A stretch of DNA of 16,935 nucleotides from Planctomycetota bacterium. GTDB lineage: Bacteria > Planctomycetota > UBA8108 > UBA1146 > JAKEFC01. Location: assembly GCA_022616235.1 (NCBI GenBank), contig JAKEFC010000025.1, positions 1 to 16,935 on the forward strand, given 5' to 3'. The notes beneath the pieces are model-generated. The model had not been told where the DNA came from. It searched no databases and saw only the letters and a list, made by a program, of their open reading frames with translations. Positions 757 through 16,447 of the stretch are shown piece by piece; position 1 is the stretch's first letter; every line of letters begins with the position of its first letter. The translations under genes were made by a program, and so were the position numbers.

Positions 757-1299
757 ATGTTCCTCGCCTGCGCCGCGATCGGCATGGTGCTGCTCGTCGT
801 GCAAGTCGTGATGATGGTCATCGGCCTCGACAACGTCGATGACCCGAGCGACACGGCGTTCTCCGTGGACGATGCCGCCGGCGGCGACGCCTTCTTCGGC
901 TACCTCTCGCTGAAGACCGTGGTCGCGTTCCTCGCGTTCTTCGGACTCACCGGCCTCGCGGTCGAGAATGCCGCCTGGGCGTCTGCCACGTGGGTGAAGC
1001 TCGCGGTCGCCTCCGCCGCCGGATTGCTCGCGTTCCTCGGCGTCGCCTACCTCATGAAGAGCTTCATGAAGCTGCAATCGCAGGGGAACGTGGAGCTGAA
1101 GAACGCCGTAGGCCAGCAGGGGATCGTCTATCTCACGATCCCGGCCTATCGCGCGGGGATGGGACAAGTCACGGTCGTGGTGCAGCAGCGCACCATGCAA
1201 ATCAAAGCGATCACACAAGGGACAGAATTGAAGACCGGCGTTCCGATTCGCGTCGTGGGCCAACATGGCGCCGACGTCGTCGAAGTCGCCGCCGTGTAG
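757..1299 (+). CDS. NfeD/YqiJ-like membrane protein (partner of SPFH/flotillin proteins)
   Basis: Hydrophobic N-terminal TM segment, an acidic stretch (DNVDDPSD), further TM helices, and a C-terminal soluble beta-rich tail (GQVTVVVQQRTMQIKAI...GVPIRVVGQHGADVVEV) typical of the NfeD OB-fold. Sits immediately upstream of a flotillin gene, as in E. coli yqiJ-yqiK. Confidence 0.7.
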   Translation: MFLACAAIGMVLLVVQVVMMVIGLDNVDDPSDTAFSVDDAAGGDAFFGYLSLKTVVAFLAFFGLTGLAVENAAWASATWVKLAVASAAGLLAFLGVAYLMKSFMKLQSQGNVELKNAVGQQGIVYLTIPAYRAGMGQVTVVVQQRTMQIKAITQGTELKTGVPIRVVGQHGADVVEVAAV

Positions 1300-1384
1300 G
1301 CTCCGCATCCTTTCCTGGACAATTCGCTTTCGGGTTCGAGTGCGCATCGCCGCGAGGGCGGCATCGCGCCTGAAGGAGTGAGAG

Positions 1385-3118
1385 ATGGAAGCTGTCGGTT
1401 TTTTCCTGGCCCAAATGAACTCACAGGCGCTTGGCGCCATGGTCATCGCGCTCGTTCTTTTTGGCGCCTTGTTCCTGTTCTTCCTCGCGAAACGCTACAA
1501 GCGCTGCCCGCCGAACCGCGTGCTCGTGATCTACGGCAAGGTCCGCGCCGGCACCTCGGCGCGCTGTCTCCACGGCGGCGGCGCGTTCGTCTGGCCGCTG
1601 ATCCAGAACTATTCCTATCTCAGCCTCGACCCCCTGCAGATCGAGATCCCGCTGAGCGGCGCGCTCTCCGCCGAGAACATCCGCATCAACGTACCGAGCG
1701 TCTTCACCGTGGCGGTCGGCACGACGGATGAACTGATGCAGAGCGCCGCGCAGCGCTTGCAGGGGCTCTCCCCCACGGAGATTTCCCAGCAGGGCCGCGA
1801 CATCATCTTCGGGCAGCTCCGGCAAGTGATCGCGTCGATGGGGATCGAGGACATCAACCGCGACCGCGACAAATTCCTGAGCAAGGTCCAATCGTCGCTC
1901 GAGCCGGAGCTGAACAAGATCGGTCTCGTGCTCATCAACGTGAACATCACGGACATCACGGATGAGTCGGGATACATCGAGGCGATCGGGCGCAAGGCTG
2001 CGTCCGAGGCGGTGCAATCCGCCGCGATCGACGTCGCGCTGCAAGAGAAGCGCGGCGCGATCGGCGTCGCCGCCGCGAAGCGCGACCAGGACATCAGCGT
2101 CGCGCAGGCCGAGCGTGACCTGCAAGTCGGGACGACGACCGCGCAGCGCGAGCAGGCGGTCGAGGTCGCCCGCCTCGCGAAAGAGCGCGCGGTCGGCGAG
2201 CAGCAGGCCGCCTTCGAGCGCGATTCGCAGATCAAGGTGGCGGAGCGGGAGATGAGGGTCGCGGTCGCGAACGCGAATGCCTCGGCCGTCTCCGGCGAGA
2301 ACGAAGCGAAGGCCGTCATCGCGAACGCGAACGCGCAGCTCCGCATCAAGGAAGCGGAAGCGTACCAGGTCTCCGAGGTGCGGAAGCGCGAAGCCGAGGC
2401 CGCGGTCCTCGAAGCGCAGTACAAGGCGCAGGCGCGCCAGGCGCTCGCCGAGTCCACGAAGATCGAGGCGGAGCAGCGGGCGCAGCTCGAGGCCGCCGCG
2501 CGCGCGATCAAAGCGAAGATCACCGTCGACGCCGAGGCGGAGGCGGATGCGCGCCGCATCCACGCGCAAGGGCAGGCGGACGCGCGGCGCATCGAGGCGG
2601 AAGCGCAAGCGCAGGCGACCTTCGTCAATCTCGAGGCTCAGGCGCGCGGCCAGTTCGAAATCCTGCGCCGGAAGGCGGAGGGCCTGCGCGAGCTGGTGGC
2701 GAGCTGCGGCGGCGCGCAGAACGCCTTTCAGTTGATGATGCTCGAGCACCTCGACCACCTCGCGGAAACCGCCGCCTCCGCGATCTCGAACGTCAAGTTC
2801 GACAAGATCGTCGTGTGGGACGGCGGCGCGGAGAACGGCGGCGCCGCTGGATTCGTGAAGCGCATGGGCTCCATGCTGCCGCCCATGATGAATCTCATGA
2901 AGGACATAGGCGGCGTGCAGATGCCGGAATTCCTCGGGAAGATGGTGGAAGGAGAGGGCGCGGGCCCGGGCGCCGGGCCGAGCGCCGGCGCCGGCGCCGG
3001 CACGGGCGCCGCACCGCCGCATGCGGGACCGCCGCCGGCCGCGCCGCCGCCGCAAGCGCCGCCTGCATCCACGGGCACGGCCCCTGGCGGCGCGAAGCCC
3101 GGCGGCAAGGGGCACTAG
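1385..3118 (+). CDS. flotillin-like SPFH/band-7 protein (YqiK/FloT family) with an Ala/Gly/Pro-rich C-terminal tail
   Basis: GAAGGAG RBS 6 nt before ATG 1385. N-terminal TM anchor, then an SPFH core (RVLVIYGKVRAG...FVWPLIQNYSYLSLDPLQIEIPL...), then a long EA-rich coiled-coil with flotillin-type repeats (ADARRIHAQGQADARRIEAEAQAQA). The tail GAGPGAGPSAGAGAGTGAAPPHAGPPPAAPPPQAPP is low-complexity. Confidence 0.85.
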   Translation: MEAVGFFLAQMNSQALGAMVIALVLFGALFLFFLAKRYKRCPPNRVLVIYGKVRAGTSARCLHGGGAFVWPLIQNYSYLSLDPLQIEIPLSGALSAENIRINVPSVFTVAVGTTDELMQSAAQRLQGLSPTEISQQGRDIIFGQLRQVIASMGIEDINRDRDKFLSKVQSSLEPELNKIGLVLINVNITDITDESGYIEAIGRKAASEAVQSAAIDVALQEKRGAIGVAAAKRDQDISVAQAERDLQVGTTTAQREQAVEVARLAKERAVGEQQAAFERDSQIKVAEREMRVAVANANASAVSGENEAKAVIANANAQLRIKEAEAYQVSEVRKREAEAAVLEAQYKAQARQALAESTKIEAEQRAQLEAAARAIKAKITVDAEAEADARRIHAQGQADARRIEAEAQAQATFVNLEAQARGQFEILRRKAEGLRELVASCGGAQNAFQLMMLEHLDHLAETAASAISNVKFDKIVVWDGGAENGGAAGFVKRMGSMLPPMMNLMKDIGGVQMPEFLGKMVEGEGAGPGAGPSAGAGAGTGAAPPHAGPPPAAPPPQAPPASTGTAPGGAKPGGKGH

Positions 3119-3161
3119 CTCGAGGTCGAGCGCGTTCACTGTGGGGGCGCGCCGTGGCAGC

Positions 3162-4163
3162 ATGAAGATGCATGACGATGGAGGAATCGCCACGCCGAAC
3201 AACGAAGGGCACCGCTCCAACGGCGGGGCAACGCACTATCGCGCCTACGGCATCACGATCGCTTCCGAGATCGATCTGCCGGAGTTGCCGCGCGCCCCCG
3301 CCGGCGCCGGGAGCGTCGCGGATCTCACGATCCGCCTCGGCACCGTCGATGCGAGCGACGCGGCGCCGGCCGCGGCGGGGAGCCGCTTCTGGATCCGCGG
3401 CGGCGATGCGTGCCACGCTTACAAGGGCGCCGGAGCATTCCTCGCCCGCGCAGGCGCGGAGATCATCGTGGATCCGCTCCCCGGCGTCGCCGCGGAGGTC
3501 ATCCGCCTCTCGCTCCTCGGCCCCGTGCTCGCGCTCGCGCTCCATCAGCGCGGCCTTTTCCTCCTCCACGCGAGCGCCGTCGCGGCTCCGCGCGGAACCG
3601 GCGCGATCGTCCTCGCGGGAGCGTCGGGGGCAGGCAAGTCGACCGCCGCGGCGCTCCTCTGCCGGAACGGCTACGCGCTCGTGGCGGACGATGTGACGGC
3701 GCTCGCTCCGAGCCCCGCGGGCGTGCAGGTCCTGCCGGGCTATCCGCAGTGCAAGCTCTGGCGCGATGCCTACGAGGCGCTCGGCTATGCGGAGGAGGAA
3801 CTCGCGCCGATGAATCCGGCGTACGACAAGCGCGCGCTCCGCACCGCGAGTCACTTCTGCGCGCAACCGCTCCCGCTCGGCGGGATCTGCATCCTCGACG
3901 TCGGGGAGCAGCTCGCGTACGAAGCGGTGCCGCCGCAACAGGGTTTCGCCGAGGTCATGCGCAACTGGTACGGCGCCCGCTTCGGAAGCGGTCTCTTCCA
4001 GGCGCTCGATCGCGAGCTGCACCTCCGCCACGCCGCCGCGGTCGCCGCGAGCGCGCCGATCGTCCGCCTCACGCGCCCGCGCCTCGGCCTCGCCGACCCC
4101 GCCTTCGGCGGCCGCTTCGCCGCCGCCATCGCGCGCGCCTTCGCCGCTGGGCGTCCCGCCTGA
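3162..4163 (+). CDS. HPr kinase/phosphorylase C-terminal-domain-like kinase; predicted lasso peptide C-terminal Ser kinase
   Basis: P-loop GASGAGKSTAAALLCRNGYALVADDV matches the HprK C-domain (GxSGxGKS...lvaDD). The N-terminal ...YRAYGITIASEIDLPELP resembles lasso-associated HprK homologues. Both downstream precursors end in Ser. Start ATG 3162 (or 3168); the upstream in-frame ORF extension is Arg-rich junk. Confidence 0.8.
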   Translation: MKMHDDGGIATPNNEGHRSNGGATHYRAYGITIASEIDLPELPRAPAGAGSVADLTIRLGTVDASDAAPAAAGSRFWIRGGDACHAYKGAGAFLARAGAEIIVDPLPGVAAEVIRLSLLGPVLALALHQRGLFLLHASAVAAPRGTGAIVLAGASGAGKSTAAALLCRNGYALVADDVTALAPSPAGVQVLPGYPQCKLWRDAYEALGYAEEELAPMNPAYDKRALRTASHFCAQPLPLGGICILDVGEQLAYEAVPPQQGFAEVMRNWYGARFGSGLFQALDRELHLRHAAAVAASAPIVRLTRPRLGLADPAFGGRFAAAIARAFAAGRPA

Positions 4164-4253
4164 CGCGTTCCCCCCGCCGTGATAGATTATCGTCGCAGAG
4201 CGCCTGGCCGCACTTCACGCCTCGCATCGAGACGGGAGCGAAACACGCACGCC

Positions 4254-4547
4254 ATGAGTGAAAGCCTTTCGCGAAACAGCGTCGTGACGAAGCTGCGCGA
4301 GCAGATCGCCGCGAGTCTCGGCGCCGAGGCCGTGATCCTGCACCTCGAGAGCGGGATCTACTACGGGCTCAACGAAGTCGGCGCGCGCATCTGGAGCCTC
4401 GTGGAGGAGCCGCGCACGGTGCAGGCGCTCATCGATGCCATCGTGGCAGAGTACGACGTGGAGCCCGAGCAATGCGCGCGCGACGTGGAGACGCTGCTCG
4501 GCCGCCTCGTAGAGAAGCGGCTCATCTCGATCTCGCCCCCCAAGTGA
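4254..4547 (+). CDS. PqqD-family RiPP recognition element (lasso B1 protein)
   Basis: 97 aa with the PqqD-like signature (AVILHLESGIYYGLNEVGARIWSLVEEPRTVQALIDAIVAEYDV). The size is typical of B1/RRE proteins. The GTG 4179 extension would only add an Arg-rich N-terminus. Confidence 0.8.
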   Translation: MSESLSRNSVVTKLREQIAASLGAEAVILHLESGIYYGLNEVGARIWSLVEEPRTVQALIDAIVAEYDVEPEQCARDVETLLGRLVEKRLISISPPK

Positions 4548-4631
4548 TCCTAGAGCCCATTTCAAAACCTGGCCGTGGGCCAGAGGTCGAGCGAGAGGCG
4601 CGCGCGCAAGGAGAGCCGAAGAGTCGTATTA

Positions 4632-6605
4632 ATGGAGAAATACGGCGATGAGGTTCGACGCAGCGCGCGTGCCTCGCAGCCGACCGAAGCCAGGCCAGGT
4701 ATTGAAATTGGCTCGCAGAAATCGCTCCGAAAGTCGGCGCCCTTGATCGGGATCGCAGGCATCGTCCGCCGCGGCGGCCCCCCACTCGATCCCGCGGATG
4801 AAGAGCGCCTGCTCGCGGCGATCGCGCGCGGCGCGCGGCGCGAAGCGCCGGCGTTTCGCGGCACCGATGCGTTCCTGTGCGGCGGGGAGCGCGCCCCCGA
4901 GCCCGGCGTCATCTTCTTCTCCGGCCGCCTCGACGATCTCGCGGGTTTGCAGAGGAGTCTCGGTGAGGGCGCGCCGCCGGTCGCCGGCCCGGCGAATGAC
5001 GCGGCGTTCGCGGGCGCCGCGTTCGCAAAGTGGGGGGAACGGACCCCGGAATTCCTCCTCGGCGACTTCGCGCTCGCCGCGTTCGATGCGAGCGAGCGGC
5101 GCCTCTTTCTCGCGCGCGATGCGATCGGCGTCATCCCCGTGTACTACCATCTCACGCCGGCGCGCTTCGCGTTCGCGACGGAGTTGGGAGCGCTCCTCGC
5201 GCTTCCTTGGATCCCGCGCGAGCCCGACGAGCTTCGCATCGCGGACTACGTCGCCGTCTACTTCGACGACCGAGAAGCGACCTTCTATCGCGCGATCCGC
5301 CGCCTGCCGCCCGCGCACGCGCTCGCCGTCCAGCCGGCGGCCGCCCGCACGCGCCGCTACTGGGCGCTGGATCCCGCGCGCGAGATCGTGCCCGCCTCCG
5401 ACGAAGAAGCCGCCGAGCGCTTTCGCGCGCTCTTCTGCGACGCGGTGGGGGCGCGCTTGCGGCGGGCGGCGCACCCCGCGCTGCTCTTGAGCGGCGGGCT
5501 CGATTCCGCATCGATACTCTGCGCGGCCCAGGGGTTCTCTCCGAGCGCGGCGCCGCTCGCGACCTTCAGCGCCGTGTTTCCATCGCAATCGCGCGCCGAC
5601 GAGACGCGCGACCTCGATCTTCTGCTCGCCGAAGTGCGCGCGGCGCCCACGATCGTGCGCGCCGATCTGCTGAGTCCGCTCGGCGCTTCCCGCGAGATGC
5701 TCCGCCACCTGCGCCAGCCGTATCACGCGCCGAATCTCTTCGTGTATTGGAGCCTCGCGCGCGCGGCGCACGAGGCGGGAGTGACGGCGCTCCTCGACGG
5801 CGTGGACGGCGACACGACCGTGAGCCACGGATTCGAGTACCTGGCGGAATTGTTCCGCGGCGCGCGCTGGCTCGCGTGGCTTCGCGAGACGCGAAGCCTC
5901 GCAAGGCGGCTCGGCACCGCGACGCTCCCTTTCCTCTGGCGCTTCGGCGTGCTGCCCTCCCTGACGCGCTTCGCCGGCGAGCGCTATGGCGCTTTCGGCG
6001 CGGGCGCGCCGGGGACGCCGCCTCCGCTCCTCGACCGCGACTGCGCGGAGCGCGTGGAGTGGCGCGCGAAGCGCGAGGATGCGATCGCCGCGCTCGGCGC
6101 CGCGCCGCCGACCTTGCGCGCCGCTCATCATCGCCAGCTCGCGAGCGGCCTCATCCCGTTCTACCTCGAAGTGAATCACCTGCTCTCGGCGCCGCTCGGG
6201 ATCGAGGCGCGGCATCCGTATTACGACCGGCGCTTGATCGAATACTGCCTCGCGCTACCGCCCGCGCTCCGCCTCCAGGATGGATGGGACCGGCGCGTGC
6301 AGCGGCTCGCCATGGCGGGCATGGTGCCAGAACGGGTCCGCTTGCGCTTGCGCAAGGCGCACTGGGGAAGGAACTTCGAAGAGAGCTTTCTGGTTCGCGA
6401 CCGCGGCCTGATCGAGGAGACCCTCGAGGTTTCGGCGCCGAGGCTCCGCCAATTCCTCGATTTGGGGCGGCTCCAAGCGGCGATGCACCGAACCGCAGCA
6501 GGGGGGCGCCGCGCGGACGACGTCATGGACCTCTGGGTTGCGACGACGCTGGGCCTCTGGCTCGTGTCCGAAGAGCGTGCGAGCGCTTCCACTGCCGTCG
6601 GGTAG
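4632..6605 (+). CDS. asparagine synthetase-like lasso peptide cyclase (C protein)
   Basis: N-terminal LIGIAGIV resembles the AsnB MCGIAGI motif but carries Leu in place of the nucleophilic Cys. An SGGLDS PP-loop ATP-pyrophosphatase motif is present (ALLLSGGLDSASILCAAQ). Length ~620-657 aa. Start is uncertain: ATG 4632 or TTG 4743. Confidence 0.85.
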   Translation: MEKYGDEVRRSARASQPTEARPGIEIGSQKSLRKSAPLIGIAGIVRRGGPPLDPADEERLLAAIARGARREAPAFRGTDAFLCGGERAPEPGVIFFSGRLDDLAGLQRSLGEGAPPVAGPANDAAFAGAAFAKWGERTPEFLLGDFALAAFDASERRLFLARDAIGVIPVYYHLTPARFAFATELGALLALPWIPREPDELRIADYVAVYFDDREATFYRAIRRLPPAHALAVQPAAARTRRYWALDPAREIVPASDEEAAERFRALFCDAVGARLRRAAHPALLLSGGLDSASILCAAQGFSPSAAPLATFSAVFPSQSRADETRDLDLLLAEVRAAPTIVRADLLSPLGASREMLRHLRQPYHAPNLFVYWSLARAAHEAGVTALLDGVDGDTTVSHGFEYLAELFRGARWLAWLRETRSLARRLGTATLPFLWRFGVLPSLTRFAGERYGAFGAGAPGTPPPLLDRDCAERVEWRAKREDAIAALGAAPPTLRAAHHRQLASGLIPFYLEVNHLLSAPLGIEARHPYYDRRLIEYCLALPPALRLQDGWDRRVQRLAMAGMVPERVRLRLRKAHWGRNFEESFLVRDRGLIEETLEVSAPRLRQFLDLGRLQAAMHRTAAGGRRADDVMDLWVATTLGLWLVSEERASASTAVG

Positions 6606-6737
6606 TCACCGCGCCGCCAAGCCCGGCTCCGGCAACCGAGATTCCGGCGCGCAAGTTGGGCGAGCCCTTTGCTAGGTTCCGCGCAGACGCATGGCGCCGC
6701 CACTACGCCGCGAACGACACCGAAGGGAGCCTGCCTC

Positions 6738-6929
6738 ATGACCTCCGACTTCACGAACCTACCGGCCTCCCAGAACAAGCGCCGCCCTTACCGCACTCCG
6801 GAGTTGGTCGTCCACGGGAGCATGGAAAAACTCACCGGTTGGATCGGCGGCACTTGGGGCGAATTCTTCGGCGGCACGAACGGCCTCGACCCGTTGGGAG
6901 ATGACCCCTTGGGCGGCACGGGGAGCTGA
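6738..6929 (+). CDS. lasso peptide precursor A1 (63 aa): MTSDFTNLPASQNKRRPYRTPELVVHGSMEKLT-GWIGGTWGEFFGGTNGLDPLGDDPLGGTGS
   Basis: AAGGGAG RBS 8 nt upstream. The leader carries the RRE-binding motif YxxPxLx3G (YRTPELVVHG). The core has Glu at position 9 (8 if the core starts at Trp) for isopeptide ring closure, is Gly-rich, and ends in Ser (the kinase target). It is a paralogue of the next ORF and sits right after the cyclase gene. Confidence 0.75.
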   Translation: MTSDFTNLPASQNKRRPYRTPELVVHGSMEKLTGWIGGTWGEFFGGTNGLDPLGDDPLGGTGS

Positions 6930-7183
6930 CTCTACCGTTCGACGCACCACCCTCGCGCCGAGTCGAAGTCGCGGACTTCCGCGTCGCGACAACTCCCGTG
7001 CTGCGGCTCATTTCCGAGGATCTACCTCAGCAGTTCCACAGCCGGCGGGTAGCCAGAGAGCCACCCGGCCGGTATCCTTCTTCGACCCGGACGCCCGGAG
7101 TGCGTGCGCGGCTTCGCAAACGGCCGTGCGCACCCCACTCGGCGCAATCACTACGCCGCAAACGACGAGGAATCGACTCCATC

Positions 7184-7381
7184 ATGACCACCGCCTTCAC
7201 GAGCCGTGCGAATTCCCAATGCCCGCGCCGCCCCTACCTTGCTCCGGAGCTGATCGTCCACGGGAGCATAGAGAAGCTCACCGGTTGGGTCGGTGGCCCT
7301 TGGGGCGAATTCCTCGGCGGCACGAACACCGGCTACAATCCTTGGGACGGCGATGGGCCCTGGGCCGTCACGGGCAGCTAG
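7184..7381 (+). CDS. lasso peptide precursor A2 (65 aa): MTTAFTSRANSQCPRRPYLAPELIVHGSIEKLT-GWVGGPWGEFLGGTNTGYNPWDGDGPWAVTGS
   Basis: Same leader architecture (RRPY..PEL[VI]VHGS[MI]EKLT) and same ring region (GW[IV]GG[TP]WGEF) as A1. The tail differs and is rich in bulky Tyr/Trp. It also ends in Ser. The conserved upstream element CACTACGCCGC[AG]AACGAC is shared with A1. Confidence 0.75.
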   Translation: MTTAFTSRANSQCPRRPYLAPELIVHGSIEKLTGWVGGPWGEFLGGTNTGYNPWDGDGPWAVTGS

Positions 7382-7475
7382 CAACTTCTTTCCGCGCTCG
7401 TTCCCAATCTAAGTGCAAAGACTCGACACTCCCATCGACGAGAGTCGAAACACAGCGCCAGAATCGTTGCAACCG

Positions 7476-8714
7476 ATGAATTTCGCCGCGCCGGGACTTC
7501 GCGCGGATGCGAAGTGGCTATTGGCAATCGTTTCCGTTGGGTCGGCCGCCGGCCGCATCGAGCGCTTGCGCGCGCTCGACGTGCGCGCGCTCGACGCGAC
7601 TCGCCTGCACGCGCTCGCCATGCGCCACCGCGTCGAGTCGCAGGTCGCGCGCGCGCTGGAATCTCTCCCCTGCGACCCTTCCGAAATCGCTCCCGCGGGG
7701 CTCTTGCCGGCGATTCGCGCCGCGGCGCGCGCCGAGTGCATCCACTCTTTGCGATTGACGCGCGAGCTGCTCGAGGTCGTCGCCCTCCTCGAGCAGAACT
7801 CGATCCCCGTGCTCGCTTACAAGGGGCCCGTCCTCGCCGCCGCGCTCTATGGCGCCGCCGCCGCGCGCCACTCGTGGGACCTCGACGTCCTCGTGCGGCG
7901 CGCGGACCTCGAGCGCGCGCGCGGCCTACTCCACGAGCGCGGCTACGTGCCGGAGCCGCAGCCGCCATCGCAAGCGGAGCGGGACCTGCTCGCGCTGGAT
8001 TGCGAGTGCAACCTCGACCACCCGCGCCTCGGGGTCCACCTCGAATTGCACTGGGACCTCTTCGATGAAGAGAACCGCCGCGGCCTCGATGCGGAATTCT
8101 TGTGGAAGAATGCGACGCGCGTCGAGTTTGCCGGCAGCACGGTCCTCGCGCCTTCGCCCGCGGCGATGTTCATCGTCGCTTGCGCCCACGGCGGCGAGAA
8201 GCATCGCTGGGGGCGCCTGAAATGGGTGCTGGACATCGCGCGCTTTCCCGCGGCGTATCCCGCGCTCGATTGGCCCGCGGCGCTCGCGCTCGCGGAGAGC
8301 GTGGGGCGGCGCCAAGCCGTGCTCGAAGGCATCTATCTCGCCACGCACTTGCTCGGCGCCGAATTTCCTCCCGCGCTCGCGGCAGCCGCGGAGCGGGACG
8401 AGTGGGTGGCGGCGAACGCGGCGCACACGCGCGGGCGCCTCTTCCGGGATGACGCCGACTTTCCCGGCTTCGGCGAGTGGCGCGCCTACCTGCACGCCGC
8501 GCGCGCGGAAGCGGAAGCTGATGCAGGCAAGAACGCCGGGCTCCGCGAGAAGCTTCGCACGCTCGCGCTCTATCTGCGCACGGTGTTCACGCCCGATTGG
8601 GCGGACCGCCGCCGCCATCGCGTGCCGCGGCGCCTCGGTTTCCTGCGCTACTTGCTCCGCGCGAGAGAACTCGCGCACACCTACCGCGCGGACCTCACCG
8701 CGCGCCTCAAGTAG
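7476..8714 (+). CDS. nucleotidyltransferase-family protein (Pol-beta superfamily; lasso-cluster-associated 'N' protein)
   Basis: Pol-beta NTase signature G-x(n)-DhD is present (YKGPVLAAALYGAAAARHSWDLDVLV), followed by a helical C-terminal region. Proteins of this kind co-occur with HprK-like kinases in phosphorylated-lasso clusters. Start is ATG 7476 or GTG 7413. Confidence 0.7.
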   Translation: MNFAAPGLRADAKWLLAIVSVGSAAGRIERLRALDVRALDATRLHALAMRHRVESQVARALESLPCDPSEIAPAGLLPAIRAAARAECIHSLRLTRELLEVVALLEQNSIPVLAYKGPVLAAALYGAAAARHSWDLDVLVRRADLERARGLLHERGYVPEPQPPSQAERDLLALDCECNLDHPRLGVHLELHWDLFDEENRRGLDAEFLWKNATRVEFAGSTVLAPSPAAMFIVACAHGGEKHRWGRLKWVLDIARFPAAYPALDWPAALALAESVGRRQAVLEGIYLATHLLGAEFPPALAAAAERDEWVAANAAHTRGRLFRDDADFPGFGEWRAYLHAARAEAEADAGKNAGLREKLRTLALYLRTVFTPDWADRRRHRVPRRLGFLRYLLRARELAHTYRADLTARLK

Positions 8715-9342
8715 TCCGCTCACCACGCTCGCCACCATCCTCTCGGGCGGCGGCGGGTTTCTCCCAGACCGCGAGCGCCGTCGAGCCGTAGGTGCGCGCG
8801 GCGGCGCTGAGGCACGGCGCGGGGGGCGCGGGGGGCGCGAATTCCGCGGGATGCTCGAAAGCGAGGAGGCCGCCCGCGGCGAGCGCGGCGCCGGCGGCGA
8901 GGCGCGCCGCGAGAGCGCAAGGATCGCGCGCGGGATCCGCGTAGTCCGCGAAGGGCGGGTCGAGCAGGATCAAGTCGAAAACTGCGGCAACCGGCAGTTT
9001 CAGTTCGTACGCGTCCGCGGAGCGAACCTCCGCCACGGGCTCGAGCCCAAGCTCTGCGATGTTCCTGCGCAAGATTGCGAGCACGGCGGGATTCTTCTCG
9101 ACGACGAGCGCGCGCACCGCTCCGCGCGACATGGCTTCGCACGCGAGCGCGCCGGAACCCGCGAAGAGGTCGAGCACGCGCGCGCCGCGGACGCGATCCC
9201 CGAGCATCGCGAAAAGCGCCTCGCGGATCCGCTCGCGCATCGGCCGCACCGTAGTCCCCGGCGGCACCTCGAGCATGCGCCCGCGCAGATGCCCCGCGAC
9301 GATTCGGATCCGTTCCGGCCGCGGCCGCGCCCTCGCGTTCAC
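8707..9342 (-). CDS. rsmD: 16S rRNA (guanine966-N2)-methyltransferase RsmD
   Basis: RIVAGHLRGRMLEVPPGTTVRPMRERIREALFAMLGD...VLDLFAGSGALACEAMSRGA...LILLDPPF is the RsmD motif set: the SAM-binding Gly-rich loop and DPPF. The GTG start overlaps the upstream stop by 4 nt (GTGA). Confidence 0.85.
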   Translation of the reverse strand: MNARARPRPERIRIVAGHLRGRMLEVPPGTTVRPMRERIREALFAMLGDRVRGARVLDLFAGSGALACEAMSRGAVRALVVEKNPAVLAILRRNIAELGLEPVAEVRSADAYELKLPVAAVFDLILLDPPFADYADPARDPCALAARLAAGAALAAGGLLAFEHPAEFAPPAPPAPCLSAAARTYGSTALAVWEKPAAAREDGGERGERTT

Positions 9343-10580
9343 CGCGCGCGAATCTCGAGCGGAATCTCCGCGGTCGCCGTCTGCTTCCCGTGGAGGTCGC
9401 CGACTTCGACGGCGAGGCGGTATGCGCCCGGGTCCAACCCAACTGGAACCGTGAACTCGTAGCAGAGGTAATGCTCCGACTGCGCGCTGTCGCGCGCGAG
9501 GAGGTCGCCCCCCGGCCTGCTGAGCGCGAGGCGCCGAACCTCCGCGCCGCCATCGCGATACACGCGCGCGGTCGCCTCGACGCGGAACTCGTAGACATCG
9601 CGCTCGATGCGGGGCTGCAAGTTCGCAAGCTCGCCGTAGAGCTTGAACTTGTCGCCGGCCCGCACCGCGCCGCGCGGCGCCGGGTCGAAGTCGCGAAAGC
9701 CGCCGATCCGCTTGCAGACTTGCAGGGAGCGGAGCGCGAGCGAGCCCGTGCTCGCCGGAGCCGGAACCGCCGGCGGCGCGCCCCCGTCGAGCCGCGCGAG
9801 CGCGGCGTCGCGCAGCTCCGCGAGGTCGAGATCGTGATAGAAGCTCGCCACCATCAGGAGATGCGCCTTCGCGCCGGAGCCGCCGGCGCCTTCCAGCGAG
9901 CGTAGGAGGGGCTGGAGATAGACCGATTGCGCGGCGCGCGGCAGCAGAAAGTGAAGCGCGATGAGCTGCATCTGAATCCGCTGCTTCTGGAAGCGTTCCG
10001 CCTGGGCGAGATCGGCGTCCGCCTTGCCTTCGAAGGCGGCAAGCTCGCGGAGCAATTCCTCCATGCGGCGCTCCAGTTCGCCTCCCGCGCGCGCGCGCGC
10101 GCCGGATTCGTTCGCGGGCGCCGCGGGCACGACCGCCGCCGCGCTTCCCGTTGTCGTCGCTCCGGATCTCGCGGCGGCGGCGCGCTCCGCGCCGGGATCG
10201 CGGCCGGCGCCCCATTTCACCTCGACCGCCGCGCTCGCGGCCGCGGCCGCCTCCAACTCCTCGGCACGCTCCAGCCGCGCCTCGGCGACGGCGGGGGAGG
10301 GAACCCCGATCTCCTCGAAGAGGGGCTCCCTCGCGAGCGCCGGCAGTGCGGCACCGGGTGCGGCGGCATCGTGCGGTGCCGCGGTCGTTGCTGCTGCGGC
10401 AGCCGGCGGCTCGGTGTCTTCGAGCGGCGCGCTGCGGCAGCCGGTTGCGGCGGCGGCGAAGAGCGCAGCGGCGGCCAGAAGGGCCTGAGCAAGCGCGATG
10501 TGCGATGGAGTATTCCCGGAGCGGGGAGCGACGCCGCGGAGGAGAGCGGAGTGAAAGCGCGACATGAGTCTCGTTCGCAT
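9339..10580 (-). CDS. Ala-rich lipoprotein of unknown function
   Basis: N-terminus MRTRLMSRFHSALLRGVAPRSGNTPSHIALAQALLAAAALFAAAATGC has a positively charged n-region, a hydrophobic core and an AATGC lipobox. The central part is Ala/Glu-rich. Start is ATG 10580 or 10565. Confidence 0.55.
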   Translation of the reverse strand: MRTRLMSRFHSALLRGVAPRSGNTPSHIALAQALLAAAALFAAAATGCRSAPLEDTEPPAAAAATTAAPHDAAAPGAALPALAREPLFEEIGVPSPAVAEARLERAEELEAAAAASAAVEVKWGAGRDPGAERAAAARSGATTTGSAAAVVPAAPANESGARARAGGELERRMEELLRELAAFEGKADADLAQAERFQKQRIQMQLIALHFLLPRAAQSVYLQPLLRSLEGAGGSGAKAHLLMVASFYHDLDLAELRDAALARLDGGAPPAVPAPASTGSLALRSLQVCKRIGGFRDFDPAPRGAVRAGDKFKLYGELANLQPRIERDVYEFRVEATARVYRDGGAEVRRLALSRPGGDLLARDSAQSEHYLCYEFTVPVGLDPGAYRLAVEVGDLHGKQTATAEIPLEIRAR

Positions 10581-10687
10581 GCGAGCGCCGCGGCGCGGGC
10601 GCAGCGCGAAGTTTCCGCCGGCCGGGGCCAGAGGACAAGGGGATTTTGGAGCGAGTCGTGCAAACAGGCGGGGACGCCGGAGGGGCG

Positions 10688-12460
10688 CTACTCCTCTTTC
10701 AGCTCGGATTCGAGGGCGCGGTAGGTCGCGAGCAGCGTGCGGTAGTCCTCGCTCGCGTAGATGTCGCGGCGCGACACGGACGCGAAGAGGTCGCGCGCGG
10801 CATCGAAGTGCTCGCGCGGATGGTTCGCCTCGGAGCGGTGCAGGTTCAGGTGCCCCTGTACCGTGCTCATCTTGAATCCCAGGTCGCCGGGAGTGCGCCG
10901 CGCCGCTTCGAGGTAGTCCGCGAGCGCGAGGGCGTGGTCGCCGAGCATCGTGTACAGCACGCCGCGATCGTGCCAAGCCGCGGCGTTCCGCTCGTCGTAT
11001 TGGATGGCGACGTCCAGCTTTTCGATGGCGAGCGCGAGCGACTCGGAGTCGCCGCGGCCGGCGAGCGCGAGGGCGCGGGCGTGCAGCTCCGCGGAAGTCG
11101 ACTTCGCCTCGGCGGCGGGATTCAAGAGGACGAAGCGCGTGCGCGACGTGATCGCCGTCGCGTTGGCGGCGAGGTCGCGCGCCGTGAGGCGGAAGAGAAG
11201 CCTCTCCACTTCAATGAGCGGCGGGCGCCAGGTGAAGACTCCACGCCCGTCCCGGGAAGGGAGGCCATCCTGCAAGAGGAGCCACGTCGCGCCATCATCG
11301 ATCGACACTTCGAGGCGGCAGCCGCCGGGAGCGAGGTGCTCCTCCGTGATGATCCACGAGATCGGAATCGGCTCCCCCGCGCGATGGAACAACTCCGGCG
11401 CGCCGTTCCCCACGACCAGTTCGCCATCCGGGGAGTGCGTATCGACGAGCACGCGGGCGTCGAACGGCGTATCGGGGCCGGGCTCGGGGCGATCGCCCTT
11501 GCCGTTACGGTCCACGGCGCGAAGGTAGAAGCAATACACGCCGTCGCGCTCGGCTTCGAAGATGAAGGGCGAGCGCTGGTCGGGGTCCTCGGTGACCTCC
11601 CATTCCCCCAGCTCCTTTTGAAACCAGATCTCGACCACGCCAATCTCGATCGGAGAGTAGCTCTGGACGCGATAGAAGAGCGGGAACTTGCGGAAGGACG
11701 AGCAAGGCTCCGCCGCCATCCCGCGCGAGCCGCGGAAGTCCGCGAAGGGAGTAACGGCGATCGGCGCATCGAGGACCCACTCCGCCGCGTTGCCGGCGAG
11801 GTCGCGCGCCTCGAAGCGCACTTCGATCGCGCCTTCCACGAACGGCGAGAACCATTGGACGCGCCCGTGCGGCGCAGTGCATTCCGCGAGATCGATCTTG
11901 CTCCACGGCTCTTCCGCCGAGCGCCGATACTCGATCGCGACGGGGCGGTCGCCGAGATGCTCGTCGTCGGCTTCCCAGTGTAGGACGATCGCCGTGCCGG
12001 CGTAGATCTGCGCGCCGGGGAGCGGCGCGTGCACCGCGATCGCTGGGGCGCGCGTGTCGATCACGCAAGAGTAGTCCGGCGCATCGCCGGGTTGCGGAGG
12101 CGTCTGCCGCATGCCGGCGCCGTCTACGGCGACCGCGCGAAAGCCGAAGCGGCCATCGTGCGGGGCCTCGAACGAAATTGCGGCCGTCGCGTCGAAGACT
12201 TGCTCGATCGCCTGCCACGTCTGGCCGCCGTCGGTGGAGTACCAGAGCTGCACGCCGCGGACCGGAGCTGCGCCTGCCGCGACAGGGGCGAGATCCAGCT
12301 CGATCGAGCGCGTGTTGAAGTGGCGCGTCTCGCTCGCGGCGCCGACCTCCGGCGCGGCGGCGGACTCGGCGGCGACAAGCGCCGAGGTAGTGACAATGGC
12401 GGCGATGGCGATGGCGGCGAGGAGGCCGGATGCGCTCGCGGCGCGTGAACGATACGACAT
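10688..12460 (-). CDS. secreted BNR/Asp-box repeat protein with C-terminal TPR repeats
   Basis: Signal peptide (MSYRSRAASASGLLAAIAIAAIVTTSALVAAES). BNR motifs SxDxGxTW occur at least twice (YSTDGGQTW, SIDDGATW). The C-terminus is TPR-like (AAWHDRGVLYTMLGDHALALADYLEAARRTP...). The upstream in-frame extension is discarded. Confidence 0.65.
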   Translation of the reverse strand: MSYRSRAASASGLLAAIAIAAIVTTSALVAAESAAAPEVGAASETRHFNTRSIELDLAPVAAGAAPVRGVQLWYSTDGGQTWQAIEQVFDATAAISFEAPHDGRFGFRAVAVDGAGMRQTPPQPGDAPDYSCVIDTRAPAIAVHAPLPGAQIYAGTAIVLHWEADDEHLGDRPVAIEYRRSAEEPWSKIDLAECTAPHGRVQWFSPFVEGAIEVRFEARDLAGNAAEWVLDAPIAVTPFADFRGSRGMAAEPCSSFRKFPLFYRVQSYSPIEIGVVEIWFQKELGEWEVTEDPDQRSPFIFEAERDGVYCFYLRAVDRNGKGDRPEPGPDTPFDARVLVDTHSPDGELVVGNGAPELFHRAGEPIPISWIITEEHLAPGGCRLEVSIDDGATWLLLQDGLPSRDGRGVFTWRPPLIEVERLLFRLTARDLAANATAITSRTRFVLLNPAAEAKSTSAELHARALALAGRGDSESLALAIEKLDVAIQYDERNAAAWHDRGVLYTMLGDHALALADYLEAARRTPGDLGFKMSTVQGHLNLHRSEANHPREHFDAARDLFASVSRRDIYASEDYRTLLATYRALESELKEE

Positions 12461-12528
12461 ATTCGAAGGATCGGGCGTTTCGATCCGCGCCTTTACGGCG
12501 GGTCCGATAATTTCGGAGCGAGACTCGT

Positions 12529-12702
12529 CTAGAAGATCTCGAGCTGCTTCGGGCGCTGCTCCGTCTGTCCCCAATGAAACCAGCGGCGAAAGCCCTCCCA
12601 ACACTCCTTGCAGAGGTAGTGGACGTGGAGATCGAACTTCACGAACTGGTGCGTCGGTATCTTCTCTTCGAGATAGCAGCGCTGGCAGGTTTCCCGCTCC
12701 AT
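12529..12702 (-). CDS. small zinc-ribbon protein (57 aa), first gene of the minus-strand operon
   Basis: AAGGAG RBS 6 nt upstream of ATG 12702. Two CxxC pairs (TCQRC...CKEC) separated by ~17 aa. Lower, coding-like GC. Confidence 0.45.
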   Translation of the reverse strand: MERETCQRCYLEEKIPTHQFVKFDLHVHYLCKECWEGFRRWFHWGQTEQRPKQLEIF

Positions 12703-12901
12703 CGCACGCTCCTTCTTGCCGGCCGGCGGTCCCCAGCAAGATCGGCAGGAGGCGGCACGGGTCTTGAACGGCCGCGCTTGGAGTCCATAAGGCGGTCTCG
12801 CGCGGCCGCGGCGGGCGGTGATGCGGGAGCCGGCCCATCCGGGCCCTTTCCCCCGCTTTTCCCCATGACGTTGCGCGCGCCGCGGAACCCAGAGCGGTCG
12901 C

Positions 12902-12936: not shown

Positions 12937-13524
12937 ATGCGCTATCCGGCGGAGCACAAAGATCGCATGCGCAAGAAGATCGTTCGCGCGGCAGCGCGCC
13001 GCTTTCGCGGCGCGGGCAGCGAGGGCGTTCCGATCGCGGATCTCATGCGGGATCTCGACCTCACCCACGGCGGCTTCTATCGCCACTTCCAAGGAAAGGA
13101 AGAGCTGTTCGACGAAGCGCTCGCCGAGAGCATGGCACAGGTCGAAGCGCTGATGACGGCGACGGCGAATGCCGCACCGCGCGGCAAGGAGCTGGAAGCG
13201 ATCATCGACTTGTACTTGAGCCCGGCGCACTGCGCGAACGTTGCGGAAGGGTGCCCGCTCGCGGCGCTAGTGACGGAGGTGGCGCGCCATCCGAAGAGCA
13301 CCCGCGTTACGTTGAGCAATGCCGTCAAGCGCCATGCCGCCGCGGTGGCGCGGTTCATGCCGGGAGAGACGGAAGCCGAGCGCCAGGGCACGGCGATGGT
13401 GCTCTTCTCCGGCATGGCGGGGGCGCTGAACCTCGCGCGCGCGGTGTCGGATGATGCGCTTCGAAGGAAGATCCTCGCGCGCGCGCGCGACTTTTACGCC
13501 GGCGCGGTTCGCGGGAAGCCATGA
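12937..13524 (+). CDS. TetR/AcrR-family transcriptional regulator
   Basis: N-terminal HTH (RKKIVRAAARRFRGAGSEGVPIADLMRDLDLTHGGFYRHFQGKEELF) is the TetR signature. ~195 aa. Sits upstream of an efflux operon. Confidence 0.85.
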   Translation: MRYPAEHKDRMRKKIVRAAARRFRGAGSEGVPIADLMRDLDLTHGGFYRHFQGKEELFDEALAESMAQVEALMTATANAAPRGKELEAIIDLYLSPAHCANVAEGCPLAALVTEVARHPKSTRVTLSNAVKRHAAAVARFMPGETEAERQGTAMVLFSGMAGALNLARAVSDDALRRKILARARDFYAGAVRGKP

Positions 13525-13602
13525 GGCGTTTTTTTTGGCGCAGATGGGATTTCGATCATCATCTCATCGGGAGCGCCGGCGCCGCCGAGAGGACGCGGAC
13601 CG

Positions 13603-14739
13603 ATGAACTTCGTCGCCCTGCGAATGCTCACGGGCGATCGCGCCAAGTACTTCGGCCTGGTGTTCGCGATCGCGTTCTGCACGTTCCTGCTCGAGAACCA
13701 GACCACGATCTTCGCGAGCATCCTGAAGCGTACCGCCAGCCAGATCCTCGATGTCACGGACGCCGAGGTCTGGGTCATGGATCAGAAGACCGAATACTGG
13801 GAGCAGACGAAGGCCCTGAAGGACACCGACCTCACCCGCGTCCGCGGAGTGCCGGGGGTGCTCTGGGCCGTGCGGCTCTTCAAGGGCAACCCCGTCGCGC
13901 GCACGCGCTCCGGCAAGTTCGCGGTGTCGTTCCTGATCGGCCTCGACGACGCCACGCTCGCCGGCGCGCCCCGGAAAATGCTGCTCGGGTCGTGGGAGCG
14001 CCTGCGCGAACCCGACTCGGTGATCATCGACGAGGCGGGCTACGTCCTCCTCTATCCCGGCGAGCCGCTCGAGCTGGGGCGTACCCTGGAGATGAACGAC
14101 CACCTGGTCACCATCGTCGGGATCTCCGATGCCTCTGCGCCTTTCGTGAGCCTGCCCGTGATGCACGCGCGCTACAGCAAGGCGATCGACTTTCTCGGCC
14201 GCGAGCGCACGCAGCTTTCCTTCGTCATCGCGCGCCCGGAGCCGGGGGTGACACCCGCGGCGCTCACCGAGCGGATCCAAGCGACGACTGGACTAAAAGC
14301 GCGCACGACCGGCGAGTTCATGTGGGACTGCGTGCGCTACTACCTCCGCAACACCGGCATTCCCGTGAATTTCGGGATCACGATCGCCGTGGCCCTGATC
14401 GTCGGCGCCGTCGTCGGCGGGCAGACCTTCTATCTCTTCACGATCGAGAACCTGAAGCAATTCGGAGCGCTGAAGGCGATCGGCGTCACGAATCCCCGCC
14501 TCATCGGCATGATCCTCTTGCAGGCGTTCAGCGCGGGGATCCTGGGCTTCGCGCTCGGAACCGGGATGGCGGCGACCTTCTTCGAGATCACGAGTCACAT
14601 GCTCGCCACGCGTGGCATCGCGCTCCTCTGGCAGTGCGTCGCGTTGACCGGCGCGGCGATCCTCGGCGTCGTGATCGTCGCCAGCATCCTCAGCATCCGG
14701 CGCGTCCTCGTGCTCGAGCCGGCGGCGGTGTTCCGATGA
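13603..14739 (+). CDS. ABC transporter permease, FtsX/MacB/DevC family
   Basis: N-terminal TM helix, a large periplasmic domain, then three C-terminal TM helices with the FtsX-like pattern (GALKAIGVTNPRLIGMILLQAF...). Its stop overlaps the ATPase start (ATGA). Confidence 0.85.
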   Translation: MNFVALRMLTGDRAKYFGLVFAIAFCTFLLENQTTIFASILKRTASQILDVTDAEVWVMDQKTEYWEQTKALKDTDLTRVRGVPGVLWAVRLFKGNPVARTRSGKFAVSFLIGLDDATLAGAPRKMLLGSWERLREPDSVIIDEAGYVLLYPGEPLELGRTLEMNDHLVTIVGISDASAPFVSLPVMHARYSKAIDFLGRERTQLSFVIARPEPGVTPAALTERIQATTGLKARTTGEFMWDCVRYYLRNTGIPVNFGITIAVALIVGAVVGGQTFYLFTIENLKQFGALKAIGVTNPRLIGMILLQAFSAGILGFALGTGMAATFFEITSHMLATRGIALLWQCVALTGAAILGVVIVASILSIRRVLVLEPAAVFR

Positions 14740-15500
14740 TCGGCGCGGCGAACGGCCACGATTTCGCGGTGTCGTGCGCGGGCGTCCGGAAGTCCTTCGG
14801 CGCGGGGGAGACCAAGACCGAGGCGCTCCGCGGCGTCGACTTCGACGCCCGCTTCGGCCAGCTCACGTTCCTCGTCGGGCCGAGCGGCTGCGGCAAGACG
14901 ACCCTCATCTCGATCATCGCGGGGCTCCTCGATCGCTCGAGCGGGGAATTGGCTGTGCTCGGCCTACGCCCCGACGAGTTGTCGGGCGGGGAGCGCGTGC
15001 GGTTTCGGCGCCGGAATCTGGGATTCATCTTCCAGCAGTACAACCTGCTGCCGTCGCTCACGGCGGCCGAGAACGTCGCCGTGCCGCTCCTCGCCGCCGG
15101 CGTGCCGCGCAGGCAGGCGGTGCGGCGCGCGACGGACCTGTTGGCGCGGCTCGGGCTCGAGAATCGCGCCGCGGCGCGTCCCGCCACGCTCTCCGGCGGC
15201 CAACAGCAGCGGGTCGCGATCGCGCGCGCCCTCGTCCACGAGCCGCGCCTCATCGTGTGCGACGAGCCCACCGCCGCGCTCGATCACGAGAATGGAGAGG
15301 CGGTGCTCCAGTTGCTCGCCTCGACCGCGGTGAATCCGGATCGCGCGGTGATCGTGGTCACGCACGATTCCCGCGTATTCCACCACGCGCACCGAATCGC
15401 GCGCATGGACGACGGACGGATCGTCGATGTCGCGAAGCAGGCGCGCGCCTCGCTGTCGCCTGCGGCAAACGGCGCCGAGACCCACGAGGAGGACCGATGA
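14736..15500 (+). CDS. ABC transporter ATP-binding protein (MacB/LolD/DevA-like)
   Basis: Walker A GPSGCGKTT, Q-loop, ABC signature LSGGQQQRVAIARAL, Walker B LIVCDEPT, H-loop VTHD. Confidence 0.9.
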   Translation: MIGAANGHDFAVSCAGVRKSFGAGETKTEALRGVDFDARFGQLTFLVGPSGCGKTTLISIIAGLLDRSSGELAVLGLRPDELSGGERVRFRRRNLGFIFQQYNLLPSLTAAENVAVPLLAAGVPRRQAVRRATDLLARLGLENRAAARPATLSGGQQQRVAIARALVHEPRLIVCDEPTAALDHENGEAVLQLLASTAVNPDRAVIVVTHDSRVFHHAHRIARMDDGRIVDVAKQARASLSPAANGAETHEEDR

Positions 15501-16447
15501 TGAAGCGTAGCGTGTTGCCGTTCCTTGGAATACTCGCCGCCGCTTGGGCGACCTTCGCGATCATCCGGTCGAAGCCGGCGCGCGTCGAAACCGACCCTCC
15601 GAGCCCGCCGCCGGTCTCGGAGTACGGCCATACCGTCGCGGCGGTCGGCCTGATCGAAGCGAACACCGAGAACATCTCCATCGGAACGCCGCTCGGCGGA
15701 GTCGTGGCGCGCGTCTACGTAACGGCGGGGCGCACGGTGAACGAAAACGAGCCGCTCTTCGAACTCGATACGCGGCATCTCCGCGCGGAGCTGGCGGTGC
15801 GCGAGGATGCGTGTGCCGTCGCACGCGCGCGCGTGGCGGTCGCGGCGGCGCAGCTCGCGGACCTCGAGCGGCAGCTCGAGTTCTTCGAGCAGATCAGCGA
15901 CAAGCGCGCGGTGTCCGTCGAGGAGCTGACGCGCCGTCGCTCCGCGGTCGAGACGGCCGCGGCGTCGCTCGAGCAGGCGCGCGCGGAGGCCCTGGCGGCG
16001 AATTCCTCGCGCGACGCCGTGGGCGTCGAAATAGAACGCAGCACGGTGCGCGCGCCGATGGACGCGGAGGTGCTCCAGGTGAAGGTGCGCCCCGGCGAGT
16101 ACGCCCCAGCGGCCGCGATGCCGGCTCCGCTCCTCCTGCTCGGCCGCGCGAAGCCGCTCCATGTCCGCGTCGACGTGGACGAGCACGAAGGGTGGCGCGT
16201 GCGCGCCGGCGCCGCCGCCACCGGGCACGTGCGCGGCAACGCGGATCTAAAGACGTCGCTCCGCTTCGTGCGCATGGAGCCGTTCGTCGTGCCCAAGCGT
16301 TCGCTCACGGGCGACAGCACGGAACGCGTCGACACGCGCGTCCTCCAGATCATCTACCTCATCGAGCGCGACGACCTCCCGCTCTTCGTCGGCCAGCAGA
16401 TGGACGTCTTCATCGACGGCGCCCCCCCCAACGGCCGCGCACATTGA
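15497..16447 (+). CDS. HlyD-family periplasmic adaptor / membrane-fusion protein (DevB/MacA-like)
   Basis: N-terminal TM anchor (VLPFLGILAAAWATFAII), a coiled-coil hairpin (ELAVREDACAVARARVAVAAAQLADLERQLEFFEQ...), and C-terminal beta domains. GAGGAGGA RBS. Start overlaps the ATPase stop. Confidence 0.8.
   Translation: MMKRSVLPFLGILAAAWATFAIIRSKPARVETDPPSPPPVSEYGHTVAAVGLIEANTENISIGTPLGGVVARVYVTAGRTVNENEPLFELDTRHLRAELAVREDACAVARARVAVAAAQLADLERQLEFFEQISDKRAVSVEELTRRRSAVETAAASLEQARAEALAANSSRDAVGVEIERSTVRAPMDAEVLQVKVRPGEYAPAAAMPAPLLLLGRAKPLHVRVDVDEHEGWRVRAGAAATGHVRGNADLKTSLRFVRMEPFVVPKRSLTGDSTERVDTRVLQIIYLIERDDLPLFVGQQMDVFIDGAPPNGRAH

Follow-up and report, generated by a model that had tools for sequence, protein, structure and literature searches.

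Introduction

The great stability of lasso peptides makes them valued scaffolds, and the leader peptidase B2 is treated as universal in their biosynthesis. To our knowledge, the evidence that B2 can be bypassed comes only from heterologous deletion experiments. Here we describe a gene cluster at positions 3162–8714 of a contig from a member of the Planctomycetota (assembly GCA_022616235.1, contig JAKEFC010000025.1). It encodes a lasso-peptide system with two precursors, a kinase, a nucleotidyltransferase (NTase) and a PqqD-type recognition element (RRE, or B1), and it contains no B2 gene. The window, as we call the whole stretch of DNA analysed, is the entire 16,935-bp contig of a fragmented metagenome-assembled genome (MAG), with a GC content of 69%.

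What do the closest described systems contain? The paeninodin-type systems (pade of Paenibacillus dendritiformis C454, ThcoK, and SyanK of Sphingobium yanoikuyae) share with the window an HprK-like kinase with a His/Lys/Asp/Asp set, a precursor ending in Ser, a split B1 of the PqqD family and an Asn-synthetase-like cyclase. The window differs in having neither B2 nor an adjacent ABC exporter, in the position of its kinase gene upstream of B1, in its two precursors, and in a predicted Trp1–Glu8 ring where paeninodin has Ala1–Asp9; its host is a planctomycete of 69% GC. Compared with a paeninodin-type locus of the Bacillota (L071, Neobacillus cucumis, order C-K-B1-B2-N), its proteins show 26–35% identity.

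The pseudomycoidin cluster (psmCAKB1B2ND, Bacillus pseudomycoides DSM 12442) combines, as does the window, a kinase with an NTP_transf_5-type enzyme, PsmN. PsmK adds one to three phosphates to the C-terminal Ser; PsmN is required for adding one or two hexoses to the phosphoserine and is needed for the +162 and +324 Da increments on phosphorylated forms, the D134A/D136A mutant being inactive (PMC6993621). The DxD pair of the window NTase matches this D134/D136 mutagenesis site. The psm cluster contains both psmB1 and psmB2. Both work in vitro, yet neither is needed in E. coli or B. subtilis: pseudomycoidin production continues there after deletion of psmB1/B2, and even a leaderless core suffices (PMC6993621). 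The initial annotation of the window had it that the pseudomycoidin cluster lacks B2, which is incorrect. Since psm does encode B2, the window, which keeps B1 and is natively without B2, matches no characterised architecture in this respect. The paeninodin/pseudomycoidin-type architecture first assigned to it thus holds for the tailoring genes, but not for the B2 and adjacent ABC exporter of pade and psm.

Two further systems share parts of the arrangement. An uncharacterised cluster of Stanieria cyanosphaera PCC 7437, mentioned by the authors of the pseudomycoidin study (Zyubko et al. 2019; PMC6993621), resembles the window in having a cyclase, a precursor and an HprK-like kinase and no B2. 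It is described as having no B protein at all and a glycosyltransferase of the classical kind, whereas the window keeps its RRE and an NTP_transf_5 enzyme. The LPP family of Bacillota, reported in a 2026 paper, unites an RRE/kinase/NTase module, shared with the window, with a signal-peptidase-like (SpI-like) leader peptidase and an MsbA-like pump (PMC13381572). LPP clusters need no cyclase, whereas the window has one.

The cluster and its enzymes

The locus is a real lasso-peptide cluster of the Planctomycetota with paeninodin-like tailoring genes. Most of the open reading frames (ORFs) listed for the window are spurious because of its GC content, and the gene map (table 1) was built from a frame analysis of GC at third codon positions (GC3) together with profile searches. 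Both bear out the six co-directional genes, all on the plus strand, that had been proposed for 3162–8714. Their GC3 values of 0.80–0.87 show the bias typical of real genes in a 69% GC contig. All six ORFs are intact and every family-invariant catalytic residue is kept. The profile matches of the individual proteins, given below, likewise uphold the proposal of a lasso cluster decorated by a kinase and an NTase. For comparison, a scan of one genome per species yielded a family sample of 80 loci.

Public HprK models match the kinase only around the P-loop (Pfam Hpr_kinase_C, 7.7e-5; TIGR04352 HprK_rel_A, 1.2e-7; both under the curated cut-offs). It scores 2e-100 against a hidden Markov model (HMM) that we built from the lasso-linked kinases of the 80 loci. 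Its H, GASGAGKST and ADD motifs align to columns conserved in 72–73 of 74 lasso-linked kinases, and this His/GxxGxGKST/Asp-Asp pattern agrees with the His-Lys-Asp-Asp catalytic set reported for paeninodin-type kinases (PMC9266682). Might it be an HprK serving a sugar phosphotransferase system (PTS)? Against TIGR00679 (hpr-ser) it reaches 21.7 bits, where the cut-off is 240, and Pfam scans of the window find no ptsH/crh or other PTS genes. In keeping with the initial annotation, it is not an HprK beside ptsH/crh.

The PqqD-type RRE matches PF05402 (1.2e-23) and NF033536 lasso_PqqD_Bac (1.7e-21; 76 bits against a cut-off of 80) and keeps the Tyr, Gly and Trp conserved in its family. Its start is probably the ATG at 4251; an alternative GTG start lies at 4179.

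The cyclase matches the lasso cyclase model NF033535 at 1.2e-132 (444 bits, cut-off 525) and PF00733 at 5.8e-37. Its match to the AsnB model TIGR01536 (3e-51) is poorer by more than 80 orders of magnitude. The N-terminus, M-I-G-I-A-G, lacks the Cys nucleophile of AsnB; the invariant SGGLDS ATP-binding motif is present. We conclude, in agreement with the initial annotation, that this is not a housekeeping AsnB. The start at 4632 given there must be replaced by the TTG at 4743 of the NCBI annotation; the open frame reaches upstream to 4575.

The NTase matches PF14907 NTP_transf_5 (4.4e-52) and keeps the KG...DxD...H...D positions. It starts at 7476 as annotated, in a frame open from 7413. An AlphaFold model of good quality (pLDDT 89.4, pTM 0.90) shows an NTase core with all-helical regions on its N- and C-terminal sides. 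Foldseek searches with the model return FKRP, LnuA and ANT(2'')-Ia.

Two precursors and their predicted products

The two small genes between the cyclase and the NTase, A1 and A2, are recognized by a precursor-family HMM at 4e-17 and 3e-18, and both weakly match NF033528 lasso_cyano (4e-4, 8e-4). The HMM found 88 precursors in the family; 82 of these, in distinct loci, also fit the leader motif, the common form of which is (K)xYxxPxLxxxGxxxxxT-x. The A1 gene has a GC3 of 0.83 and a Shine–Dalgarno-like GAAGGGAG upstream. The A1 leader comprises residues 1–34, ends ...EKLTG and carries the motif as Y18-P21-L23-G27-T33. A2 is 65% identical to A1: leader and ring are conserved, the tail is divergent.

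The predicted cores are WIGGTWGEFFGGTNGLDPLGDDPLGGTGS for A1 and WVGGPWGEFLGGTNTGYNPWDGDGPWAVTGS for A2. In A1 the core runs from W35 through E42, which places Glu at position 8, and A2 is alike. Asp or Glu stands at core position 8 or 9 in 69 of the 82 family precursors. Both cores end ...TGS, as the translations had suggested at the outset; a C-terminal Ser closes 39 of the 82. The sequences thus predict lassos of 29 (A1) and 31 (A2) residues with an eight-membered Trp1–Glu8 ring, for which the computed [M+H]+ values are 2862.30 and 3219.42. A phosphate (+79.966 Da) would bring these to 2942.27 and 3299.39, a phosphate with one hexose to 3104.32 and 3461.44, and a phosphate with two hexoses to 3266.37 and 3623.50.

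How might these products be made? By analogy with the related systems, the RRE would bind both precursors through the YxxPxLxxxGxxxxxT motif of their leaders, and the kinase would phosphorylate the C-terminal Ser of the linear precursor. A peptidase not encoded in the cluster would cut the leader after Gly34, with Thr at −2. The cyclase would then link Trp1, by its alpha-amine, to the Glu8 side chain, the site used being suggested by relatives, and the PsmN-like NTase-fold enzyme might add a further group to the phosphoserine (for pseudomycoidin, a hexose). The predicted products are two lasso peptides bearing a phosphate, and probably also a sugar, on the last Ser.

A combined profile of A1 and A2, run against 1.84 billion representative proteins, gave 32 matches, of which about 15 have a core of the type W[IV]GGxWGEF...GWNPW...GS. 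This core type is a small environmental family in which we found no characterised member. The expectation of an undescribed product family is to that extent justified. A novelty that we considered at first, the Trp at position 1, was dropped: Trp1 is unusual but not new, because fusilassin and cellulassin are already known with Trp1–Glu9 rings. These peptides of Thermobifida (fusilassin is also called fuscanodin) share with the window a macrolactam formed from an N-terminal Trp. They differ in being actinobacterial, in having B2 and no kinase or NTase, and in a nine-membered ring against the eight predicted here, and their cores have no sequence similarity to those of the window. The cluster offers a pair of predicted Trp1 cores from an uncharacterised core family, with a predicted Trp1–Glu8 ring, a conserved GWNPW-type tail and a predicted C-terminal phosphoserine.

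About 20 nt before each of the two precursor start codons lies an 18-nt element, CACTACGCCGC(G/A)AACGAC, which is absent upstream of the precursors of relatives. Its two copies indicate that the tandem duplication of the precursor gene took in the 5' untranslated region. Possibly it acts in regulation or as leader RNA and was copied along with the gene.

Among the precursors of other loci several are of unusual form. The precursor of the closest relative, L001 (11915–12106), has a run of ten glycines before LGS, and P0134 a similar run of seven; as a lasso peptide has to stay threaded, a tail of such flexibility is unusual. P0144 (382 aa) has five tandem lasso-leader-like repeats (KPYxxPxLxDHGxxxxxT and a short acidic segment); the C-terminal segment to which they are fused is similar to the intramolecular-chaperone motif known from phage tail fibres, and this C-terminal motif recurs in two weak matches to the precursor HMM (L065, 6684–7091; L069, 11853–12299). 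P0148 has two tandem leaders within 69 aa.

Absence of B2 from the window and from related loci

Is B2 truly missing? Pfam scans find no match to PF13471, the B2 family, in any plausible gene of the window. An HMM built from 64 B2 members of the family, to which true members score 80–195 bits, was applied, with all filters disabled, to every ORF of 35 aa or longer in the six frames. Its best score in the 16.9-kb contig was 15.7 bits, at 4336–4509. This match is the out-of-frame 3' end of the PqqD gene, an artefact also seen in loci with a real B2; it arises because B2 genes overlap the PqqD 3' end. The initial statement that the window holds no B2 is therefore correct, and it refers to the 16.9-kb contig of a fragmented MAG. 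Nor was a peptidase of the S24/S26 (SpI-like) type detected among the window genes.

The 80 loci come from Cyanobacteria, Chloroflexota, Acidobacteriota, Gemmatimonadota, Proteobacteria, Planctomycetota, Archaea and others; the cyclases nearest to that of the window are 41–45% identical to it. The usual order of the family is PqqD-B2-C-A-HprK-...-NT5 (NT5 being the NTP_transf_5 gene), often followed by an ABC exporter. The uncharacterised clusters of the order PqqD-B2-C-A-HprK-NT5-ABC (for example L085, L089, L003/L005 on a Planctomycetota chromosome, L040–L044 of Mesorhizobium, and many cyanobacterial loci) agree with the window in their five protein families and in their leader motif. L085, L089 and L003 share its W[IV]GGxWGEF core type as well. 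Clusters of this order encode B2 and one precursor, in most cases together with an ABC2-type exporter, and by comparison the window is rearranged and reduced.

How common is the absence of B2? We counted the 59 loci with at least 4.5 kb on each side. B2 is present in 48 of them and absent from 11 (about 19%), in several phyla; PqqD without B2 is found in five (the window, L001, L033, L050 and L055). No replacement peptidase common to these five loci emerged from an all-against-all BLAST, in which the only extra shared family was that of ABC ATPases. In B2-less loci the NT5 gene lies directly 3' of the precursor gene or overlaps it.

Two layouts can be distinguished among the close relatives. 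In type I (L085, L089 and the P0004 locus) the order PqqD-B2-C-A-HprK-NT5-ABC-ABC2 is followed by polysaccharide-export genes; L003 is a rearranged version. In type II (L001/L002, L086, L087 and the window) the order is PqqD-C-A-NT5, and there is no B2 within 8–10 kb; these loci form a small group of planctomycete type. Type II leaders, RKPYEAPxLxxHGSIEKLTG, and rings are conserved. The B2-less layout is found across cyclases only 43–64% identical to one another, so that it is not an accident of assembly. This recurrent layout, which retains the RRE, stands apart from the usual PqqD-B2-C-A-HprK-NT5 order.

Two observations concern the surroundings of B2 elsewhere. Four loci (L029, L039, L064 and L082) carry two cyclases and several precursors, with at most one B2 within 10 kb: one in L029 and in L039, one together with an 83-aa fragment in L064, and none in L082. 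Where it is present, B2 may be shared between the neighbouring lasso systems. Secondly, genes of polysaccharide export or synthesis follow the four B2-containing loci with W-type cores (L085, 9288–13485; L089, 12943–16186; L003, 13251–16974; and the P0004 locus). Poly_export/SLBB proteins occur in all four; Wzz-like proteins, a ParA-like ATPase and Bac_transf occur in some, and L003 adds polysaccharide deacetylases and a glycosyltransferase. This link recurs across loci with cyclases 41–57% identical.

How is the leader removed?

If the cluster has no B2, what cuts the leader? In the B2-containing relatives L085 and L089 the LTG|W junction is identical to the ...EKLTGW of the window, and a B2-type enzyme evidently processes it there. 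The simplest reading is that the organism of the window also has genes for B2 and an exporter, at other sites in its genome. Genes of this system are indeed scattered in related genomes, which makes an unlinked peptidase gene the most likely arrangement. The NT5 gene of L003 lies 7 kb from its cluster, behind five unrelated genes; the HprK gene of L086 is 5.4 kb upstream, behind DUF1800/DUF1501 genes; and L001 and L087 have no HprK within 8–10 kb, though both have NT5 and cores with a final Ser. We therefore favour, with moderate confidence, a functional but reduced cluster whose leader peptidase lies outside it, a B2-type peptidase and an exporter being most likely encoded elsewhere in the genome.

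Several points weigh against this reading. Both the reading and the products are predicted from sequence and homology. Several of the profile scores fall below the curated NCBIfam cut-offs. No exporter is adjacent; the nearest transporter, of the MacB type, lies at 13603–16447, 4.9 kb past the NTase gene, with three unrelated minus-strand genes and a plus-strand TetR gene between. A search with a B2 profile gave 506 matches, none attributable to the MAG of the window, so that B2 is neither found nor excluded there. The four type II cyclases, 43–64% identical, do group together in a neighbour-joining tree, but the tree carries no support values. Lastly, four independent B2-less loci would fit equally well with a B2 that is truly dispensable in this lineage.

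Could the lineage indeed have dispensed with its leader peptidase? A housekeeping protease would then trim the RRE-bound precursor at an exposed LTG|W junction, and the cyclase would accept the freed core, as happens with pseudomycoidin when psmB1/B2 are deleted. The recurrence of PqqD-C-A-NT5 in four deeply diverged loci and the 11 well-flanked loci without B2 both speak for such maturation. So do the experimental precedent for B-independent processing and the Stanieria cluster (PMC6993621), and the LPP family, in which the kinase/RRE/NTase module works with a SpI-like peptidase (PMC13381572). Against it, Thr at −2 and the full RRE-binding motif are kept as in B2-containing relatives, which is to be expected if B1 and B2 still act; the B2-less loci share no replacement peptidase gene; and in two of them the kinase gene too is locally missing, which points to scattering rather than loss. 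B2-independent maturation of this kind is thus unlikely, though far from negligible. It is similarly doubtful that the type II lineage (the window, L001, L086 and L087) has permanently lost B2 while keeping the RRE and a canonical leader; in that event either a housekeeping protease acting on the RRE-presented junction or an unrecognised peptidase would do the cutting.

The distinction is of some consequence. Natural B2-free maturation, if true, would give the laboratory finding with pseudomycoidin its first parallel in nature, and a cluster type that lacks B2 and retains the RRE makes the choice between such maturation and gene scattering directly testable. If scattering is true, mining tools that need B and C to be adjacent under-count lasso clusters in Planctomycetota. 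The cluster also offers a second example for studying the chemistry of PsmN-type NTase-fold enzymes.

In the reading favoured above the leader would be cut between Gly34 and Trp35. Might the core begin at Gly34 instead, with a nine-membered Gly1–Glu9 ring and Thr at −1? Lasso cores begin with Gly more often than with any other residue (25 of the 82 in the family), and a nine-membered ring is allowed; the computed [M+H]+ values would be 2919.32 (A1) and 3276.44 (A2). Yet this position is variable among relatives, being Gly in the window, L001 and L085, Gln in L003, P0139, P0142 and P0143, and Ala in P0158, while the Trp that follows and the Glu seven residues on are conserved. In the family at large, with its Thr at −2, residue −1 is Gln in 43 of the 82 precursors and Gly in four, and lassos beginning with Trp are known. 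The variable −1 residue, the conserved Trp and the family-wide Thr at −2 indicate that the cores start at Trp1 and that the cut falls after LTG. We have accordingly rejected the Gly1–Glu9 ring, which the comparison of precursors renders improbable, in favour of Trp1–Glu8.

Is the cluster perhaps a decaying remnant, from which B2 and the exporter have disappeared and which has ceased to produce a mature lasso? Both genes are missing, unlike in the nearest complete relatives L085 and L089. But the six reading frames are intact down to their catalytic residues, the precursor gene has been duplicated with both copies kept, and the persistence of the B2-less layout across such diverged cyclases speaks against simple decay. 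Decay is very improbable.

That the NTP_transf_5 enzyme, or the N-terminal domain of the kinase, doubles as leader peptidase is hardly credible: although NTases fused to B2 are reported from several clusters, in some Firmicutes (PMC8498205), and NT5 follows or overlaps the precursor gene in B2-less loci, the window NTase has no match to PF13471, its length (412 aa) equals that of NTases in B2-containing loci, and its confidently modelled fold, an NTase core flanked by all-helical domains in which neither Foldseek nor the model reveals a protease fold, largely refutes the idea.

Gene map and surroundings of the cluster

Table 1. Positions of the cluster genes and of neighbouring features in the window.
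Feature	Position	Strand	Remarks
Membrane protein, no Pfam match	757–1299	+	directly on the upstream side of the cluster
Flotillin (Band_7), 577 aa, Pro/Ala/Gly-rich tail	1385–3118	+	
HprK-like lasso-tailoring Ser kinase, 333 aa	3162–4163	+	MCI0650479.1, locus tag L0Z55_01200
PqqD-family RRE (B1)	4251–4547	+	PF05402, NF033536
Lasso macrolactam synthetase (C), Asn-synthetase-like, 620 aa	4743–6605	+	MCI0650481.1; NF033535, PF00733
18-nt element CACTACGCCGCGAACGAC	6701–6718	+	upstream of A1; DNA alignment of both precursor regions
Precursor A1, 63 aa	6738–6929	+	translation, precursor-family HMM
18-nt element, second copy, one change	7149–7166	+	upstream of A2; pattern search
Precursor A2, 65 aa	7184–7381	+	translation, precursor-family HMM
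PsmN-like NTP_transf_5 nucleotidyltransferase-fold enzyme, 412 aa	7476–8714	+	NCBI annotation; PF14907
RsmD, then two large proteins		−	3' of the NTase gene
TetR, MacB/FtsX-type permease, ABC ATPase, HlyD adaptor	12937–16447	+	export operon
HTH gene		−	last gene of the window

An Rfam scan of the window gave no matches, and a scan of 2900–9400 for promoters and terminators found sites no more numerous than in shuffled sequence.

The pair formed by the membrane protein and the flotillin (757–3118) marks the left boundary of the cluster. On the other side, the TetR-MacB-ABC-HlyD operon starts 4.2 kb past the NTase gene, with three minus-strand genes between. It might export peptides; nothing ties it to the cluster, and the relatives use ABC2-type pumps. 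The two large minus-strand proteins, at 9342–12838, sit between the cluster and this operon. Of these, the one of up to 545 aa is without a Pfam domain, and the other (716 aa) shows weak BNR/Asp-box and TPR matches.

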